Shown here: piece after piece, positions 2,542 to 42,989 of the stretch
How the letters are laid out: each line of letters begins with the position of its first letter
Position numbering within the stretch: the first letter of the stretch is position 1
NCBI RefSeq assembly: GCF_048403405.1
Contig: NZ_CP183129.1
DNA from: Escherichia coli
GTDB taxonomy: Bacteria; Pseudomonadota; Gammaproteobacteria; Enterobacterales; Enterobacteriaceae
Reading direction: 5' to 3' (one strand)
Length of the DNA: 64,000 nucleotides
The notes under the pieces: generated by a model
The model's input: only the letters and a program-made list of their open reading frames with translations
The model's database searches: none
What the model was told of the DNA's origin: nothing
Made by a program: the position numbers and the translations under genes

Positions 2542-4453
2542 TCACTCCTCCGGACAGCTTCGCTGCCAGTTCTTTAAGGGTTGGCCGGGTCGTCTCTTCT
2601 TCCCGGGATTTTGCCAGTACAGCCAGATCAAGCTGCCAGCGTTGCACGGACACACGTAATGCCGCGTAGGCATACACCAGGCAGTCCAGCGCTTCGTTAC
2701 GCCGCTTTTTGTTATCCCACAGCAGACGCATCTTTCCTTTTTCCCACTTCTCCACAAGCTCTTCCGCGACCAGTTGCTGCGCCTCTGTCTGCGAAAAAAT
2801 CTCCGGATCATCAGGAAAACGGATGGCATACGACGTGGCTTCATCCGCAGGCGTGGGCTCGGCTTTCATACGGGCATAGAGAATTTCTTTTGCGGTGTCC
2901 GTCCCCACTTCACACAGATAAACGCCCCGCTGATTGCGGGTTTTCGGCATGGTGATCACCGGCTTGCCATAGACAGACGCGCCTTTTACCGGCAGCACAC
3001 GGAAAACACCGTGTTTTTTTGACCTCTGGTAGACGATTTCACCATCGATCCCCCCGGTGTCCCAGCAGACACGGGAAATGGTCATTTCGGTGCCATCCGC
3101 ATGGCGGTATTTTTTGTTGATCGCCGCATCCACACGTAACAGCGTCTCTTCCTCATCAGGACGCCCCATAATGATGATTTTATCCACCAGAAAAGCTTCC
3201 TCTCCCGGTGCCCATCCCCAGACATACATCTCAAAACGGTTTCGCTGCGAGTCAATGCCCGCCGTCAGATAAACCACCCGGGCAGGCACCGCCGCCGTGT
3301 AACGCACAACCTTATCCATCAGCACCTGGTGATCGAGTTTTTCGCCCACGGCCTCTTCCCAGGTCTCGCCCAGCGTGGTGTTCACAAAGGTTTTCAGGCC
3401 GTTGGGATCTTTCAGTGCATCCAGCCAGTCATAGACTATCTGTACCCAGGTGGTGAACGGACTGTACGCTGTCCAGATATGGAACGTGATGGAGCGCGGC
3501 GGCGGAATTTCATTATCCGCGGCGCTGAAAAACGTCAGACCGTCACGGGTCCACATCCCCGTGTTTTCACAGATCCACCGCCCGTTGCTCTGGTCAAGCT
3601 CAGACTGATGGATCACGCAGCCATGATGTTCACAGAGGTAGAAAACGCTTTCGGGGCTGTCCTTCTCCCATTTAAGGCCAAAAGGCGTGGATTCATCGCC
3701 AAATTTCAGATACTGCTCCTCCCCACAGTGTGGGCAGGGCACATAAAAACGCATGAAATGCGCCGACTCGTTGGCCGCTTTTTCGATCTGGCAGGTGCCT
3801 TTGATTTTAGGCGTCGAGCCGCGAATGGATTTGGGCCATACAGAGCCCTCAATACGTTTATCCCCAAGCAGGGTTGGCGAACCCTCTTTTTCGACATCCG
3901 GTTCGAACGAGGAAAGTTCGTCATAGCAGACCACGTCCACGGATTTTTCACGGTAGTTTTTGGCGGCAGCGCCGCCCAGGCACCAGAAACCCACACCCGA
4001 TGAAAAGCGTTTCAGCGTGAGGGTATTGTCACGATGTTTACGCCCCAGCCATGGAAAAAGGTCTTTCAGACATGGCACATCCCGAATCGTCGCCTCCACG
4101 TGAGACTTCATAAAATCTTCAGCGGCAGAATCCGTGGGCTGAAAAAGCAGACTGTTTCGGGATTTATGCTCAATAAAATACCCGACCACCCCCAGCAACA
4201 TCTTTGTATAGCCAACACGGGCAGATTTAATCAGATTAACAGTCCGGATCTGATCATTCCCCATGCTGTTCATGATGGCGATCTGGAACGGCAGCGTTTT
4301 CCATTCTCCCTCACCATATGAAGATTCTTTAGGCAGATAATAATTTTGATCAGCCCATTCAACTGGCGTCACCGGCAATGCCCTTATCAGGGGCTGTAAT
4401 GCTGTTGTGACAGCACTCATCATATTATTCAGTTGTTGCTCTGATATATTCAT
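2525..4453 (-). CDS. Terminase large subunit (lambda gpA-like)
   Basis: Alignable along its length to lambda gpA from MNISEQQ... (VEWADQNYYLPKESSY, KSARVGYTKMLLG, CPHCGEEQYLKFGD). I start at the internal Met at 4453, not the track start at 4510. Confidence 0.9.
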   Translation of the reverse strand: MNISEQQLNNMMSAVTTALQPLIRALPVTPVEWADQNYYLPKESSYGEGEWKTLPFQIAIMNSMGNDQIRTVNLIKSARVGYTKMLLGVVGYFIEHKSRNSLLFQPTDSAAEDFMKSHVEATIRDVPCLKDLFPWLGRKHRDNTLTLKRFSSGVGFWCLGGAAAKNYREKSVDVVCYDELSSFEPDVEKEGSPTLLGDKRIEGSVWPKSIRGSTPKIKGTCQIEKAANESAHFMRFYVPCPHCGEEQYLKFGDESTPFGLKWEKDSPESVFYLCEHHGCVIHQSELDQSNGRWICENTGMWTRDGLTFFSAADNEIPPPRSITFHIWTAYSPFTTWVQIVYDWLDALKDPNGLKTFVNTTLGETWEEAVGEKLDHQVLMDKVVRYTAAVPARVVYLTAGIDSQRNRFEMYVWGWAPGEEAFLVDKIIIMGRPDEEETLLRVDAAINKKYRHADGTEMTISRVCWDTGGIDGEIVYQRSKKHGVFRVLPVKGASVYGKPVITMPKTRNQRGVYLCEVGTDTAKEILYARMKAEPTPADEATSYAIRFPDDPEIFSQTEAQQLVAEELVEKWEKGKMRLLWDNKKRRNEALDCLVYAYAALRVSVQRWQLDLAVLAKSREEETTRPTLKELAAKLSGGVNGYSR

Positions 4454-4934
4454 CGAGTAAATCCGGTAATTTATCCCCCGCCCGCGCACACTGATTTGCC
4501 CCCTTCGCAATAAGGGTTTTCAGATGGTCAAGATGGCGCGGTGTTAAATCAGGAAACTGTCGCTGCATGGATAAAGGGATGGAATCAAGCGTACTGGATA
4601 ACGCCATTGCCAGCTTGCTGAGGGCAAAAATACAGAACCCGGTATCAATAAGTTTTCCTTTTGACACCTCATTTTTTAACTGCTGTGTAACAGCCTGTTC
4701 TGCTGTCAGTTCCCATCTGGCAATAAGCAATTTCTCCTCATAGTCGTCTTCGCTATCGCCATCAGGCACATCGTTTTTACTTCTTCTCAGATACGATATG
4801 TAAAAATCGCGCCAGGCATCCAGATCCAGTTGCCCTCGCTTATTCGATATCGGGGCACCCGGCAATTTCTGCAATCTGCGAAGCTGGCGATCGGTCAGAC
4901 TTAAATGCCTGGCAACTTCAGTCTGCGTAGCCAC
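4425..4934 (-). CDS. Terminase small subunit, Nu1 family, with a divergent N-terminal HTH
   Basis: The C-terminal half (FCIFALSKLA..LDSIPLSMQRQFPDLTPRHLDHLK..LPDLLDEYI) parallels lambda Nu1. The N-terminal HTH (MATQTEVARHLSLTDRQLRRLQK) does not. Sits directly downstream of cos. Confidence 0.75.
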   Translation of the reverse strand: MATQTEVARHLSLTDRQLRRLQKLPGAPISNKRGQLDLDAWRDFYISYLRRSKNDVPDGDSEDDYEEKLLIARWELTAEQAVTQQLKNEVSKGKLIDTGFCIFALSKLAMALSSTLDSIPLSMQRQFPDLTPRHLDHLKTLIAKGANQCARAGDKLPDLLDEYIRATTE

Positions 4935-5117: not shown

Positions 5118-5129
5118 AGGTCGCCGCCC
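5118..5129 (-). other. cosN 12-nt cohesive-end sequence (minus strand GGGCGGCGACCT)
   Basis: The minus strand of 5088-5139 reads ACAGGTTACG|GGGCGGCGACCT|CGCGGGTTTTCGCTATTTATGAAAATTTTCCGG, identical to the joined lambda right and left ends as I recall them. Confidence 0.85.
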
Positions 5130-5277
5130 CGTAACCTGTTGGATCGACGGAAAGGACCCGAAAACGAGAATAATTATCACTTACAGCAAGAATCGAATCT
5201 GATCTATTATGGTGCTTGCTATTATGTGCCGGCACAAGTGCGTCGTTTACCGTCATTTCACACAGAGGCATCATCAA

Positions 5278-5529
5278 ATGAAAATCAGAAATATTCTCGC
5301 TATCTCCCTTGCAACATCATCCTTCAGTTGCCTGGCATTTAAATCCTCGCCCAATGTGCTACCAGGACCAACGAATCAACTAACTGCGGTAGAAAGTAAA
5401 ATTATCGGACATTTTTATGCCCCACACAGTGCATTACCCGGAACAACCATCACAGGGACATGTGACGCCTCCCCCGTCCCGGGATGCACCTGTCCGTTTT
5501 GTACTATGCTGCGTAGCCAAAACCGATAA
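5278..5529 (+). CDS. Hypothetical secreted Cys-rich small protein (83 aa)
   Basis: Internal Met of track ORF 5209..5529. Has a Sec-type signal (MKIRNILAISLATSSFSCLA) and a mature part with 4 Cys (CDASPVPGCTCPFC). Reads opposite to the late operon. Confidence 0.5.
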   Translation: MKIRNILAISLATSSFSCLAFKSSPNVLPGPTNQLTAVESKIIGHFYAPHSALPGTTITGTCDASPVPGCTCPFCTMLRSQNR

Positions 5530-5590
5530 CATCCGCATTTACCTGGTATTACATGATGAGTTCACGCAGCGACTGATAGAGGAAGGAAAG

Positions 5591-5770
5591 ATGGTTAGTA
5601 AAAGCAAGGCGCATTGCCGCCGCATGCTGCAGGCATTGCAACAGACGAGAGCAGGTATTTTTGACCAGTTGGAAAACTGCCAGCATACTTTGCCCGAGTA
5701 TATCGCCATCTCATCGGAAACCAGTGCAACTCTTATTCATCGGGTTCCACCAGAGAAAAAGAAGAAATGA
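5591..5770 (+). CDS. Hypothetical 59-aa protein
   Basis: Internal Met of track ORF 5417..5770, preceded by GAGGAAGGAAAG. Followed by a hairpin at 5777-5801. Confidence 0.4.
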   Translation: MVSKSKAHCRRMLQALQQTRAGIFDQLENCQHTLPEYIAISSETSATLIHRVPPEKKKK

Positions 5771-5776
5771 ACAGTG

Positions 5777-5801
5777 AGGCGTTGTGTGGCATACAACGCC
5801 T
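5777..5801 (+). terminator. Stem-loop between convergent genes (AGGCGTTGT-7nt-ACAACGCCT)
   Basis: Perfect 9-bp stem. The U-tract is weak (TCTTCC). Confidence 0.45.
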
Positions 5802-5892
5802 TCTTCCATCATTCCTCGTCAGCCATGACAAAAATATAACCGCTGGCTCTTTCATTTTTCTCCTGCGTCCAGCCCCTCTCTACCTGGAAGCA

Positions 5893-6219
5893 TCAAGGAC
5901 GTGACGGCGTAAAGATAAATTGTCTCTTCACTCCCTGACAGGGGCGATTCTTTTCAAATCGCCATTTCGCCATGGCCTTCACCACTTCATCACGAAACAA
6001 ATTATGAGGCTCTGAGCGGAGAAAAACGATCCGTGTCACAGTCCCATCAGCACCAATATCGAACTTAACCTCAACCAGCCCCTTGATATAATTTGCTGCA
6101 GCATATTCCGGATATCGTGGATACACCGTCACTAATTGCCGGGGCTCATCAGCTTTTTGCTGCGAGCATCCCACTGCCAGGACAGATAACAGAAAAAGTA
6201 GTAAAAGGCGTCTTTTCAT
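5893..6219 (-). CDS. Lipoprotein consisting of a TonB C-terminal domain (108 aa)
   Basis: Signal plus lipobox MKRRLLLLFLLSVLAVGC. YPRYPEYAAANYIKGLVEVKFDIGADGTVTRIVFLRSEPHNLFRDEVVKAMAKWRFE aligns with E. coli TonB [56 protein letters not shown] AGGA. Confidence 0.75.
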   Translation of the reverse strand: MKRRLLLLFLLSVLAVGCSQQKADEPRQLVTVYPRYPEYAAANYIKGLVEVKFDIGADGTVTRIVFLRSEPHNLFRDEVVKAMAKWRFEKNRPCQGVKRQFIFTPSRP

Positions 6220-6529
6220 TTTTATTCCTACGGGTCTTATTCTGACAATATATCCTGTGTTCCAGACTGCCACATCACCACATCCTGTGCCATTATCTGA
6301 CTCACATTACATACATCGCATCGGGATACAGTAGTAGCACTTTCTGTAATACAGCTTCCTGTTTCTTCCACCATCGCACCGGGATAAACCCGCGAATCAT
6401 TAACGCGGTAAAAACCCGGTGTGCATCGTTTTTAATTATCCCCGCACACTCGCGCAGAGGAGTCTCCCTGTCGGGCTGCGGTCTCTGTTAATGAGGGAAT
6501 ATAGCGACGATACGGCGCATCAACAAAAC

Positions 6530-7003
6530 TTATTTCAGGCACTGAGTGCGGATATAGTCCTGTGCCCCTTCCAGTTGCTTGTGCATCGTCATCAGCCGCT
6601 CTCTGAGGGTGAAATAATCCCGTGTAACGGTGTCTGCCAGTTGGGGGCCGGTTGCATTATCCACGCCGGAGGTGGTGGGGGCTTCACGCACGGAGCCTGG
6701 ACAGGTGGCGTTGATCCGCAGGCGCTTACGACCAGCGGCAACGTCAGCGCGAAGAGTTTCATTTTCAGCTCTCGCATCGGCTAATTCCCTCGAGTATTTT
6801 GCATCGAGCGCAGCAACATCGCGCTGGCGCACCTGCATATCAGTAATGGTTGCGTTCGCCAGCTTCAGTTCACTGGCTTTGTTATCGCGCTGCGCTTTGT
6901 AGGTAATCGCGTTATCACGGTAATGGTCTGTTGCCATCCACAGCGCACCACAGGCCACCAGCAGAATAACGATAAACGCGGAAAGCATTCGGTTTATGTT
7001 CAC
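6530..7003 (-). CDS. Rz: i-spanin Rz
   Basis: [14 protein letters not shown]...[20 protein letters not shown]...[19 protein letters not shown] closely parallels lambda Rz. The GTG start overlaps the upstream stop (GTGA); an alternative ATG lies at 6988. Confidence 0.9.
6592..6777 (-). CDS. Rz1: o-spanin Rz1 (embedded in Rz, +1 frame)
   Basis: Lipobox LVVSAC and [30 protein letters not shown] match lambda Rz1. Confidence 0.85.
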
Positions 7004-7484: not shown

Positions 7485-8018
7485 TTATCTGTCGATACCC
7501 CAGCACGCCAGCGCGCTCTCCTGGTCACGACGGGATACCTGACCGTAACAGTTGTTTGAACGAATACGGCAGTCTCTGCCACCGTCCTTAATCCACCAGC
7601 GAATCGCTTCGCAGGCACCTTTTCGATCACCAGCATTAATTCGTCTGTAAAACGTCGACGGGAAACACTTACCGGGATCAATGTTGTACGGACAGAATGA
7701 CGCGATCCCCGCTTTCTGGGGTTCGGTCAGCGGCACTCTGATGTTTTTCTCCACCCACGCCAGCGCTTTATCACGCTCAATGGCGTTAACCTGGTCGCAT
7801 TTTTCCTTCGACAACTTCATGCCCGGAACGACAGGTTTGCCATCCACCATGATGGCACCACGGCAGATGGTCCAGATACCTGCACCATCACGGTATGCCG
7901 TGGTGTGGTTGCCTTCCTTTTCATCCAGAAACTGGTCGAGAATGTCAGGCGCAGGCGCACCAGCGGCAATCAGCGCCAGAACGGCAGCCGACAGGCCGTA
8001 TTTGATTTTGGTGTTCAT
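7485..8018 (-). CDS. SAR endolysin (GH24 T4-lysozyme-type)
   Basis: Gly/Ala-rich N-terminal signal-anchor-release segment (YGLSAAVLALIAAGAPAP), then catalytic spacing E-x8-D-x5-T (EGNHTTAYRDGAGIWT). Resembles the phage 21 / Stx-phage R protein. Confidence 0.9.
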   Translation of the reverse strand: MNTKIKYGLSAAVLALIAAGAPAPDILDQFLDEKEGNHTTAYRDGAGIWTICRGAIMVDGKPVVPGMKLSKEKCDQVNAIERDKALAWVEKNIRVPLTEPQKAGIASFCPYNIDPGKCFPSTFYRRINAGDRKGACEAIRWWIKDGGRDCRIRSNNCYGQVSRRDQESALACWGIDR

Positions 8019-9921: not shown

Positions 9922-10257
9922 ATGAAGTGGATTGTGATTGATACAGTTATCCAGCCATCATGCGGAATATCTTTTTCAGTCATATGGAGTAAAATAAAAT
10001 TAATAATCTGGTATCAATCGGATGCTTTCTTACCTCCTGAAAGTATATTTACACTGACTCACACAGGTATCATGCTCAATAACAAAGTGCTACCTGTAAC
10101 CATTTACAACGTAGTACCATTCAATAAAACATTCTGGAATTTAATCAAAAACAGCCAGGAATGCCCTACAAATACAGATAACGTATTGAATGAATGCTTT
10201 AATAACCGTTGCACTCTGCAAATATGTCCTTATGGGCTAAAACAACAAAGTCCATAA
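9922..10257 (+). CDS. Hypothetical 111-aa protein, AT-rich moron antisense to the late operon
   Basis: ORF with SD AAGGAA in a visibly AT-rich block (9680-10260). No recognisable domain. Confidence 0.5.
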
Positions 10258-41426: not shown

Positions 41427-42389
41427 GTGATGATCAAAACGCGTTTTTCTCGCTGGCTAACGTTTTTTACGTTCGCCGCTGCCGTGGCGCTGGCGCTACC
41501 GGCAAAAGCCAACACCTGGCCGCTGCCGCCAGCGGGCAGTCGTCTGGTTGGCGAAAACAAATTTCATGTGGTGGAAAATGACGGTGGTTCTCTGGAAGCC
41601 ATCGCCAAAAAATATAACGTCGGCTTTCTCGCTCTGTTACAGGCTAACCCCGGCGTTGATCCTTACGTACCGCGCGCGGGCAGCGTGTTAACGATCCCGT
41701 TGCAAACCCTACTTCCAGATGCGCCGCGCGAAGGCATTGTGATCAATATTGCGGAGCTGCGTCTCTATTACTACCCGCCGGGTAAAAATTCGGTAACCGT
41801 GTATCCAATAGGTATTGGTCAGTTGGGTGGTGACACGCTGACACCGACAATGGTGACCACCGTTTCAGACAAACGAGCAAACCCAACCTGGACGCCAACG
41901 GCAAACATCCGCGCCCGTTATAAAGCACAGGGAATTGAGTTGCCTGCGGTAGTGCCGGCTGGACCGGATAATCCAATGGGCCATCATGCGATTCGTCTGG
42001 CGGCCTATGGCGGCGTTTATTTGCTTCATGGTACGAACGCCGATTTCGGCATTGGCATGCGGGTAAGTTCTGGCTGTATTCGTCTGCGTGATGACGATAT
42101 CAAAACACTCTTTAGCCAGGTCACCCCAGGCACCAAAGTGAATATCATCAACACTCCGATAAAAGTCTCTGCCGAACCAAACGGTGCGCGTCTGGTTGAA
42201 GTACATCAGCCGCTGTCAGAGAAGATTGATGACGATCCGCAGCTGCTGCCAATTACGCTGAATAGCGCAATGCAATCATTTAAAGATGCAGCACAAACTG
42301 ACGCTGAAGTGATGCAACATGTGATGGATGTCCGTTCCGGGATGCCGGTGGATGTCCGCCGTCATCAAGTGAGCCCACAAACTCTGTAA
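41427..42389 (+). CDS. ldtC: L,D-transpeptidase LdtC (YcfS)
   Basis: 320 aa from (GTG)MIKTRF. LysM and YkuD domains; active site SSGCIRL. Confidence 0.9.
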   Translation: MMIKTRFSRWLTFFTFAAAVALALPAKANTWPLPPAGSRLVGENKFHVVENDGGSLEAIAKKYNVGFLALLQANPGVDPYVPRAGSVLTIPLQTLLPDAPREGIVINIAELRLYYYPPGKNSVTVYPIGIGQLGGDTLTPTMVTTVSDKRANPTWTPTANIRARYKAQGIELPAVVPAGPDNPMGHHAIRLAAYGGVYLLHGTNADFGIGMRVSSGCIRLRDDDIKTLFSQVTPGTKVNIINTPIKVSAEPNGARLVEVHQPLSEKIDDDPQLLPITLNSAMQSFKDAAQTDAEVMQHVMDVRSGMPVDVRRHQVSPQTL

Positions 42390-42397
42390 ATCCTGGA

Positions 42398-42432
42398 TAA
42401 AAAAAATCCCCGCGACACGGCATGTCGCGGGG
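42398..42432 (-). terminator. bhsA terminator
   Basis: TCCCCGCGACA-loop-TGTCGCGGGGA followed by T8 on the minus strand. Confidence 0.75.
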
Positions 42433-42471
42433 AAAAAATCAGCAGTAGCAGGCATTAATGAGGGTTAATGC

Positions 42472-42729
42472 TTATTTATAAATTACTGCTGTTCCATGGA
42501 GGGTATTTGGACCGGTTACAGAAGTAATACGGAATGATTTTGCGCCCATCTCATCCGCTTTTTGCGCCAGCTGCTCTTCCAGCGATCCCAGATTTGTCCC
42601 CGCGTTAGCACTGATAGTACCGACTTTTTGTTGGCCTTCTGGCGTTGACTGAACTTCGACAGCCGCAAAGCTGGCAAATGACATTGAGCTTAAAATCGCC
42701 GCAGCGATGAGGGTTTTTACGTTTTTCAT
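42472..42729 (-). CDS. bhsA: Multiple stress resistance protein BhsA (YcfR)
   Basis: 85 aa; YdgH/BhsA/McbA family; synteny with K-12. Confidence 0.9.
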   Translation of the reverse strand: MKNVKTLIAAAILSSMSFASFAAVEVQSTPEGQQKVGTISANAGTNLGSLEEQLAQKADEMGAKSFRITSVTGPNTLHGTAVIYK

Positions 42730-42989
42730 AATAGTGGCCTTATGCAGATGAATGACGTCGCAAGCAATTACTTAACGATCGATAACTAAATGATAGATGT
42801 GATCTGGATCACATACAAGATATTTTTTATAACAATCATTAATTAATTTAAAAATCTTTAAATTTCAGTTAAATAGAAAGCAATTATTTTTATGGGATCT
42901 GGACTGGTGAACGGAGGTGATTATTTTTATAATAACCTTTCATTCACAGTCACCAGGTACAACGGCATCATGGCAACTGACTCAACACA

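Follow-up and report, generated by a model that had tools for sequence, protein, structure and literature searches.

By analogy, two kinds of described system seem conceptually closest to the gene analyzed here. Llp of phage T5 and Cor of phages phi80, N15 and HK022 are small phage lipoproteins that sit in the inner leaflet of the outer membrane and target the TonB-dependent transporter FhuA from its periplasmic side; Llp activity needs acylation. The second kind comes from the laboratory: exported fragments of TonB (residues 33-239, 103-239 and 122-239) inhibit the activity of the TonB system in a dominant-negative manner, and it is debated whether they act on transporter-TonB or on ExbD-TonB contacts (bioRxiv 10.1101/2020.01.05.895219). 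The gene in question lies in a 64,000-nt stretch of Escherichia coli DNA (assembly GCF_048403405.1, contig NZ_CP183129.1; hereafter the window), within a lambdoid prophage. It encodes a 108-aa protein (WP_000830178.1) that combines a predicted lipoprotein signal with a TonB C-terminal (TonB_C) domain, and its relatives form a conserved Enterobacterales family whose chromosomal members are mostly preceded by predicted Fur sites.

Like Llp and Cor, the window protein is predicted to be a small phage lipoprotein of the inner leaflet of the outer membrane. Llp and Cor, however, are FhuA-specific, allosteric and of demonstrated function, whereas a mimic of TonB should in principle reach many transporters at once. 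Membership in a Bor-like or Cor/Llp-like group was rejected, as there was no similarity of sequence or fold, and no Llp entry stood among the 50 best Protein Data Bank (PDB) matches listed. With the engineered TonB fragments the window protein shares an un-energized periplasmic TonB C-terminal domain, but those fragments are soluble, overexpressed, longer and artificial, while the window protein is natural, shorter (about TonB residues 151-235) and, by prediction, lipid-anchored. The E. coli TonB C-terminal domain has the same fold (1u07 and 1xx3, and 2gsk with BtuB and 2grx with FhuA; root-mean-square deviation (rmsd) 0.9-1.2 Å, TM 0.87-0.91); compared with TonB, the window protein has neither the anchor nor the Pro-rich spacer and would be lipid-tethered to the opposite (outer) membrane. 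FusB of Pectobacterium, a full-length, inner-membrane-anchored, energized TonB paralogue, carries a TonB_C domain with a diverged binding function and was among the top structural matches (7zc8, 9hi3). Bor/Iss of lambda is, as predicted for the window protein, a small outer-membrane lipoprotein, and is likewise encoded between the lysis genes and cos, but bor has a promoter of its own and is read from the other strand, whereas the window gene is on the late-operon strand.

Lipoprotein signal and TonB C-terminal domain

The gene runs on the minus strand from an ATG at 6219 to a stop codon at 5893-5895. Both PGAP ('TonB family protein') and the curated phage 21 record (CPT_21_73) take this ATG; an alternative GTG start at 6273, giving 126 aa, is a mechanical reading only. 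The N-terminus, MKRRLLLLFLLSVLAVG followed by CSQQ, has a basic n-region (MKRR), a Leu-rich hydrophobic core and the lipobox cysteine Cys18, which follows LLLLFLLSVLAVG and has Ser at +2. The Ala at position -3 of the lipobox is less common, other family members having L/V/I-x-G/A-C. Under the Lol sorting rule, a residue other than Asp at +2 leads to outer-membrane sorting, and the product is predicted to be a lipoprotein of the outer-membrane inner leaflet. Only about eight residues (SQQKADEP) link Cys18 to the domain.

The remainder of the protein is a bona fide TonB_C domain. Pfam TonB_C (PF03544) matches residues 33-99 with 49.2 bits (cutoff 24.6, E=7e-13), and TIGR01352 (tonB_Cterm) scores 47.4 bits (cutoff 27.1). 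A phmmer search over all PDB chains returned TonB-type C-terminal domains as the sole matches, and aligned residues 24-103 with residues 151-230 of E. coli TonB (1u07, 2gsk_B and 2grx_C; E ~1e-14) with zero gaps and 32 of 80 positions identical (40%). The AlphaFold2 (AF2) model, for which a family alignment of 27 sequences served as input, has a pLDDT of at least 95 over residues 30-100 and shows the alpha-beta-beta-alpha-beta fold of TonB_C. Foldseek superimposed this model on TonB bound to BtuB (2gsk_B; TM 0.91, rmsd 1.1 Å), on TonB bound to FhuA (2grx_C; TM 0.91, rmsd 1.2 Å) and on 1u07_A (rmsd 0.9 Å). All PDB matches at E<=0.001 were TonB-type C-terminal domains, and among the viral structures of BFVD none had the fold of the TonB_C lipoprotein at the same threshold. 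The YP motif, the beta3 strand and the core aromatics Y163, F180, F202, W213, Y215F and F230 (TonB numbering) are kept; beta3 is reportedly the edge strand to which the Ton box is paired when TonB is bound to BtuB or FhuA.

The other parts of TonB are missing. There is no N-terminal membrane anchor in the 108-aa protein, the N-terminus being a cleavable lipoprotein signal and the TonB alignment beginning at residue 151, and no Pro-rich periplasm-spanning spacer in the short stretch after Cys18. The full-length TonB equivalog models of NCBIfam stay far below their cutoff (best 69.2 bits against 315, NF008084). The preliminary description of this locus had proposed the TonB_C domain, the lipoprotein signal with Cys18 and Ser at +2, the residue-by-residue alignment with TonB and the lack of anchor and spacer, all of which are borne out here. 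It had also relied on soluble TonB fragments being inhibitory, in agreement with the study cited above.

A second cysteine, Cys93 (codon 5941-5943, in RPCQG), is found in most copies of both E. coli alleles of the gene described below; it is Arg in some variants (RPRKG) and missing from more distant relatives, and is therefore unlikely to be essential. Cys93 could take part in a periplasmic disulfide.

An Enterobacterales family with predicted Fur sites

Exhaustive phmmer and profile searches recovered a family of single-domain Enterobacterales proteins of 104-159 aa with 31-49% identity to the window protein. The lipobox cysteine is invariant in 27 aligned members (31-100% identity) and in 8 further chromosomal orthologues, the +2 residue in these same proteins is S, A, T or V and never Asp, and the tether from lipid to domain is short across the family. 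In the mobile copies, the gene lies between the lysis cassette and the terminase genes, co-oriented with them, in four divergent prophage lineages: that of phage 21 and this window, the Stx1a/Lys8385Vzw type, Klebsiella phage ST13-OXA48phi12.4 and a Rahnella prophage. These lineages differ in their holins, endolysins and terminases. The second class consists of chromosomal orphan genes, which account for most members in species-representative genomes; a tblastn panel of lysis and packaging proteins found none near them, while control loci matched as expected. In Klebsiella and Raoultella the orthologues show stable synteny, with lacZ-lacI and a gene for a glycine-zipper (Rick_17kDa_Anti) lipoprotein as neighbors, the TonB_C gene following the latter. 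The neighbors are dsbB and nhaB in Serratia, and transporters and regulators in Pantoea and Erwinia. No conserved partner gene was found: the chromosomal neighbors vary, and the small convergent genes 3' of the E. coli gene are not the same in its two alleles. With no partner shared by the chromosomal orphans, the target of the protein must be something that all these bacteria have.

For the Fur analysis, the 120 nt 5' of each start codon were scanned with the 19-bp consensus GATAATGATAATCATTATC and the 7-1-7 core TGATAATnATTATCA (PMC11353095). Predicted Fur sites matching the 7-1-7 core at 13-15 of 15 positions were found at thirteen chromosomal loci, which belong to Klebsiella, Raoultella, Serratia, Pantoea and Erwinia (Table 1). 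These sites lie about 30 nt 5' of the ATG and overlap a -10-like hexamer, with the exception of the Serratia site at -65, and each of them is the best or joint best in its own 10-16 kb locus. By comparison, random 123-nt windows of the same loci reach at least 14/15 in 0.3% and at least 13/15 in 0.44% of cases, and 13 of 531 mechanical open reading frames (ORFs; at least 100 aa, same loci) have an upstream site of at least 13/15, which equals the number of TonB_C loci so scoring. The chromosomal Fur boxes tie the family to the iron/TonB system, and by prediction the family is a member of the iron-starvation (Fur) regulon. Independently of the phage copy, this finding points to an uncharacterized lipoprotein of the predicted iron-starvation regulon in these five genera.

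The copy in the window and phage 21 has no Fur box, as its best match is at background level (8/15; 10/19), and the other mobile copies score 10/15 or 11/15 (Table 1). Judged from these upstream sequences, the phage copies have escaped Fur control. In the Stx1a-type allele of phage Lys8385Vzw (L003, 3963-3979), a perfect 8-1-8 palindrome, AGAATAAG-A-CTTATTCT, is kept where the chromosomal genes have their box; it overlaps a candidate TGnTAGAAT -10 element and might be a residual operator; half of this palindrome is deleted in the window allele. The palindrome is of interest because stx1 is itself iron-regulated.

Within E. coli, the family is seemingly carried on prophages only. The 108-aa protein has 100% tblastn matches in phage 21 (CPT_21_73), ev017, Perceval and PhiR47_2. 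Its allele, here called allele 1 and defined by a nucleotide identity of at least 95%, is carried by 1224 of 5426 complete E. coli genomes, among them those of Nissle 1917 and the type strain; 1220 of these carriers have a match over at least 80% of the gene, and the identity of the best match is at least 99% in 1202. A second allele with 72% protein identity is present in 415 further genomes and in Stx1a-converting phages, so that roughly a quarter to a third of sequenced E. coli (up to ~30% of complete genomes) carry the family. Between the two alleles, the ratio of nonsynonymous to synonymous substitutions (dN/dS) is 0.12 at a saturated dS of ~1.4, indicating strong purifying selection. A 418-bp contig assigned to Modestobacter excelsi (L093, NZ_SJEX01000172.1) encodes residues 1-67 of the prophage protein at 100% identity, almost certainly a contamination of that actinobacterial assembly.

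The gene has not gone unnoticed by annotators: its product is a 'partial tonB-like membrane protein encoded within prophage CP-933N' in an EDL933-derived annotation and a 'TonB C-terminal domain protein' in that of phage 21. It is thus already known by annotation, and what is new here, relative to the literature searched, is the conserved lipoprotein family and its link to Fur boxes. No functional study of this protein was found in the full-text literature searched, in which the O157 papers that mention CP-933N make no mention of the TonB_C protein. The remark in the preliminary description that no characterized phage protein of this kind is known agrees with the same searches. In PHROGs the protein falls in phrog_1267 (E=5e-43), which is labeled 'Rz-like spanin' under lysis. 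This label looks wrong, is most likely a positional misnomer derived from the gene position and the lipobox, and would spread through Pharokka-type pipelines.

Possible functions of the TonB_C lipoprotein

Our leading reading, which we hold tentatively, is that the lipid-anchored TonB_C protein acts as an un-energized mimic of TonB that dampens TonB-dependent entry. Having no membrane anchor and no Pro-rich rod, the protein cannot couple to ExbB/ExbD and cannot transduce energy. We infer that it would be lipidated, sorted to the outer membrane and hang from the inner leaflet on its tether of about eight residues, beside the periplasmic mouths of the TonB-dependent transporters. From there it could cap the Ton boxes of these transporters by beta-strand pairing, capture the Ton boxes of incoming group B colicins, or pair with the C-terminal domain of TonB itself. 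The last variant would be stoichiometrically cheaper, since TonB is far scarcer than the transporters. If made in the lysogen, the protein would give the prophage carrier a lower sensitivity to phages of the T1/phi80 type and to group B colicins and microcins, for which it would pay with some loss of siderophore and B12 uptake. An inhibitory role is supported by the two precedents introduced above, namely the dominant-negative TonB fragments and the action of Llp and Cor on the periplasmic face of FhuA. The 'TonB decoy' of the preliminary description is accordingly close to this reading and plausible from sequence and analogy: its architecture and prophage slot stand and its TonB/iron link is strengthened by the chromosomal Fur boxes, while its 'bor position' does not hold in the sense of a replaced bor.

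Expression of the phage copy bears directly on this reading. Going by lambda biology, the gene should certainly be transcribed as part of the Q-antiterminated late transcript. The upstream regions of the two E. coli alleles are mostly unalignable, except for the lambdoid backbone after Rz and an island, ATTGTnAGAATAAGAC, located 20-35 nt 5' of the ribosome-binding site. In the window allele the island holds a candidate weak extended -10 element (Table 1); the 72% allele has TGT-TAGAAT at this place, where the scan calls ATGACC-16-TAGAAT with TG, and one variant of allele 1 also has TAGAAT. The position of the island is that of the -10 element and Fur box of the chromosomal genes, which suggests that the gene was captured with its own promoter, and expression in the lysogen is plausible on these sequence grounds.

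Several points weigh against a TonB mimic that inhibits entry in the lysogen. A consensus scan found no two-hexamer sigma-70 promoter upstream on the gene's strand in the window allele and no terminator downstream of the gene, and promoter-like counts were no higher than in shuffled controls; with the late-operon orientation, expression may be mainly late-lytic. In the domain itself, the TonB residues R158, Q160, R166, R171 and R204 are replaced (R158T, Q160Y, R166Y, R171Y, R204D), among which we take R158, Q160 and R166 to be receptor or Ton-box contacts. Since such contacts are replaced and Tyr39, at the R166 position, is nearly invariant across the family, the binding specificity appears to have diverged from that of TonB. 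The transporters greatly outnumber TonB, and capping their Ton boxes would therefore need high expression. The shortest TonB fragment reported to inhibit (122-239) is longer than this domain. It would also be counter-intuitive for an inhibitor of the cell's own iron uptake to be induced under iron starvation, and the Fur link supports action on the TonB/iron system more than it supports inhibition. Finally, PADLOC gave no family match for the protein, and a known anti-phage defense system was thus rejected.

A TonB mimic directed at the carrier's own kind of phage was considered and rejected. The C-terminus of the prophage J protein is of the lambda-J type (53% identical to lambda) and J variants differ among carriers, so no link to self-exclusion through use of a TonB-dependent receptor was found, and any exclusion would be aimed at other phages.

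A broader version of the mimic, which we consider doubtful, extends to the whole family. The family would be a so far unrecognized, Fur-controlled 'Ton-box guard' of Enterobacterales, made when the transporters are derepressed and intercepting the TonB boxes on which colicins, microcins and TonB-dependent phages rely; lambdoid phages would have taken up the gene, freed it from iron regulation and carried it into ~30% of E. coli, where it would serve broad-spectrum exclusion or bacteriocin tolerance. If this were true, the uptake of siderophore-drug conjugates (cefiderocol, albomycin) could be affected. The window protein, if it does block TonB-dependent entry, would be the natural counterpart of the laboratory dominant-negative TonB fragments and a new class of prophage-encoded exclusion, working by mimicry of the energy transducer as opposed to the block of one receptor. 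As the carriers include Nissle 1917, the type strain and Stx1a phages, it could affect which strains T1/phi80-like therapeutic phages infect, how sensitive carriers are to group B colicins and microcins in the gut, how they acquire iron and possibly how susceptible they are to siderophore-conjugated antibiotics.

Among the alternatives, an accessory of iron uptake survives best, though it is unlikely. Here the protein would help or tune TonB-dependent transport under iron starvation, by organizing transporters, by holding the Ton box or plug, or by binding a cargo protein as FusB binds ferredoxin, and the phage copy would be a lysogenic-conversion fitness gene that gives E. coli, which has no chromosomal copy, this function without Fur control. 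The Fur boxes of the chromosomal orthologues, a feature of siderophore-uptake genes as well, the stable synteny in Klebsiella and Raoultella and the divergence of the TonB contact residues all fit such a role, as does the presence among the top structural matches of the FusB C-terminal domains, which show that a TonB_C domain can bind a substrate protein. However, a domain tethered to the outer membrane has no access to the proton-motive force and cannot energize transport, no conserved partner gene is nearby, and a late-operon phage copy that has lost iron regulation is a poor fit to an uptake helper. We know of no precedent for an outer-membrane TonB_C helper of iron uptake.

It is quite unlikely that the TonB_C fold has been re-used as a general periplasmic binding module with no tie to TonB-dependent transport, whether for peptidoglycan, for a different outer-membrane protein or for an envelope-stress function, with the phage copy being an envelope or virulence moron like Bor or Lom. 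The location of the gene in the lysis-to-cos region, where lambda and phage 21 carry bor, and the difference of its receptor-contact residues from those of TonB agree with this idea, as do its place after a glycine-zipper lipoprotein gene in Klebsiella and Raoultella and its widely varying neighbors elsewhere. Against it, the Fur boxes tie the family to iron specifically, the closest relatives in both sequence and structure are enterobacterial TonB C-terminal domains that align without gaps, and the protein bears no similarity to Bor.

A role in lysis, in which a late-expressed outer-membrane lipoprotein takes part in envelope disruption or its timing, is very improbable. The phrog_1267 label and the position directly downstream of the spanin genes, in the same orientation in all four prophage lineages, speak for it, but a complete Rz with embedded Rz1 is already there, and the product has a globular TonB_C domain and no C-terminal transmembrane segment, unlike a short Pro-rich o-spanin. 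Most members in species-representative genomes are moreover chromosomal orphans far from lysis genes, and for these reasons a spanin identity was rejected. That the gene is a non-functional 'partial tonB' remnant drifting in the phage, as the older annotations ('partial', 'truncated tonB-like') would have it, is effectively refuted by the conservation data, namely the low dN/dS, the added lipoprotein signal with its invariant cysteine, the nearly intact gene in almost all allele 1 carriers and the retention of length and architecture in orthologues down to 31% identity.

Prophage locus and neighboring genes

The first 24 kb of the window are 100% identical to strain MS 69-1 and contain a lambdoid prophage beside potB. 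Along the minus strand, Q is followed by holin, lysozyme, Rz with Rz1 embedded in it, the TonB_C gene, cos, Nu1, A, W and portal (Table 1). Positions 5130-6519 match the right end of phage 21 at 98.7% identity (41542-42931 of its record, where the genome ends), and cosQ was placed from its annotation at 7061-7067 of L001 (phage 21). The gene thus occupies the slot between Rz/Rz1 and cos that the preliminary description had assigned to it, but it does not replace bor: phage 21 has both an identical TonB_C gene and bor, the latter upstream on the opposite strand, while the TonB_C gene points the same way as the late operon. The window has no bor.

Table 1. Coordinates of features at the locus (window positions unless a locus is named) and upstream matches to the Fur 7-1-7 core (of 15) or 19-bp consensus (of 19) in family members.
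Feature	Position	Strand	Basis or match
TonB_C lipoprotein coding sequence, 108 aa (WP_000830178.1)	5893-6219	-	ORF list; Pfam, NCBIfam and PHROG matches; PGAP; dN/dS
Signal peptide and lipobox (MKRRLLLLFLLSVLAVG before C18, Ser at +2)	6166-6219	-	read directly from sequence
TonB C-terminal domain, residues 26-104 (short strand, alpha1, beta1, beta2, alpha2, beta3)	5908-6144	-	AF2, Foldseek, alignment
Ribosome-binding site AGGA, 6 nt 5' of ATG	6226-6229	-	sequence; phage 21 ribosome-binding site annotated at same place
Candidate weak extended -10, TGT-CAGAAT (TGnCAGAAT)	6239-6247	-	conserved island between two E. coli alleles
Conserved non-coding block directly 3' of Rz	6340-6520	-	phage-record matches; no Rfam match
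Rz (i-spanin)	6530-7003	-	ORF list; 67% identity to phage 21 Rz; PGAP 'lysis protein'
Rz1 (o-spanin, lipobox VVSAC), embedded in Rz	6592-6777	-	ORF list
cos region	5118-5160	-	cosQ ~5153-5159; phage 21 genome end ~5130
Terminase small subunit (Nu1-like), next late gene downstream	4425-4934	-	ORF list; PGAP
L094 Klebsiella sp. R390	-29; 7972-7986		15/15; TGATAATTATTATCA
L095 Raoultella lignicola			15/15
L096 Klebsiella sp. I138			14/15
L097 R. ornithinolytica			14/15
L098 R. planticola			14/15
L099 R. planticola, second copy			13/15
L101 Serratia grimesii	-65 to -51		14/15; 17/19
L087/L088 Pantoea			14/15
L089/L090 Pantoea-like			14/15; 17/19
L107 Erwinia			14/15
L108			13/15
L100 Erwinia sp.			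11/15; no box
L084 Salmonella Choleraesuis			9/15; no box
L091, in bcs operon			9/15; no box
L085 Rahnella prophage			10/15
L002 Klebsiella phage			11/15; near-identical chromosomal twin L099 has 13/15
L109 plasmid			11/15
L003 Stx1a-type allele			10/15; 13/19

The first ~110 nt of the non-coding block directly 3' of Rz recur in 432 phage records, including lambda and Stx/Stx2 phages that have no TonB_C gene, and this part is therefore generic lambdoid backbone and not specific to the gene. The block contains nested inverted repeats, CACCGGG...CCCGGTG around CCGCG...CGCGG. A structured RNA or riboswitch was rejected, as the block is generic backbone and has no Rfam match. We also rejected a 45-aa ORF at 6237-6374, which is annotated in phage 21; it is cut short in the 72% allele, has no family matches and is probably not a gene.

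On the plus strand, a 59-aa ORF (5591-5770; WP_000253883.1 in PGAP) is convergent with the TonB_C gene and has a full-length match to phrog_4843, a group of unknown function (E=4e-47). A terminator-like hairpin on the same strand (5932-5944) lies within the 3' end of the TonB_C coding region, which makes an antisense overlap of the two transcripts possible. Between cos and the TonB_C gene there is an unannotated 83-aa ORF (5278-5529, plus strand) that starts with the signal-peptide-like MKIRNILAISLATSSFSCLA and is rich in Cys towards its C-terminus; neither Pfam nor PHROG gave a match for it, and its status as a gene could go either way. An IraM anti-adapter homologue is encoded at 9922-10257 on the plus strand, opposite to the late genes, and hokD, rem and dicB follow farther on in the prophage (PGAP annotation of the identical MS 69-1 region). 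The IraM homologue, hokD, rem and dicB are candidates for other lysogenic-conversion or toxin genes.

Several other family members have neighbors of interest in their own right. On a plasmid-like contig (L109, 3515-9646), a 129-aa member (P0071) lies directly 3' of the ParM/StbA and StbB partition genes and is followed by a DUF6694 gene and then by the anti-phage defense genes QatA (KAP NTPase) and QatB. In an Erwinia-like locus (L091, 6538-8034), the member is inserted in the cellulose synthase (bcs) cluster; the next gene on its strand encodes a protein of 498 aa that weakly matches Tle1-like lipases of the type VI secretion system. In a Pantoea-like locus (L089, 3208-5739), the TonB_C gene borders a small integrase-associated islet whose products are a protein of 360 aa that contains a pore-forming colicin domain (PF01024) and a neighbor of 137 aa, and the sister genome L090 carries other cargo at the same site.

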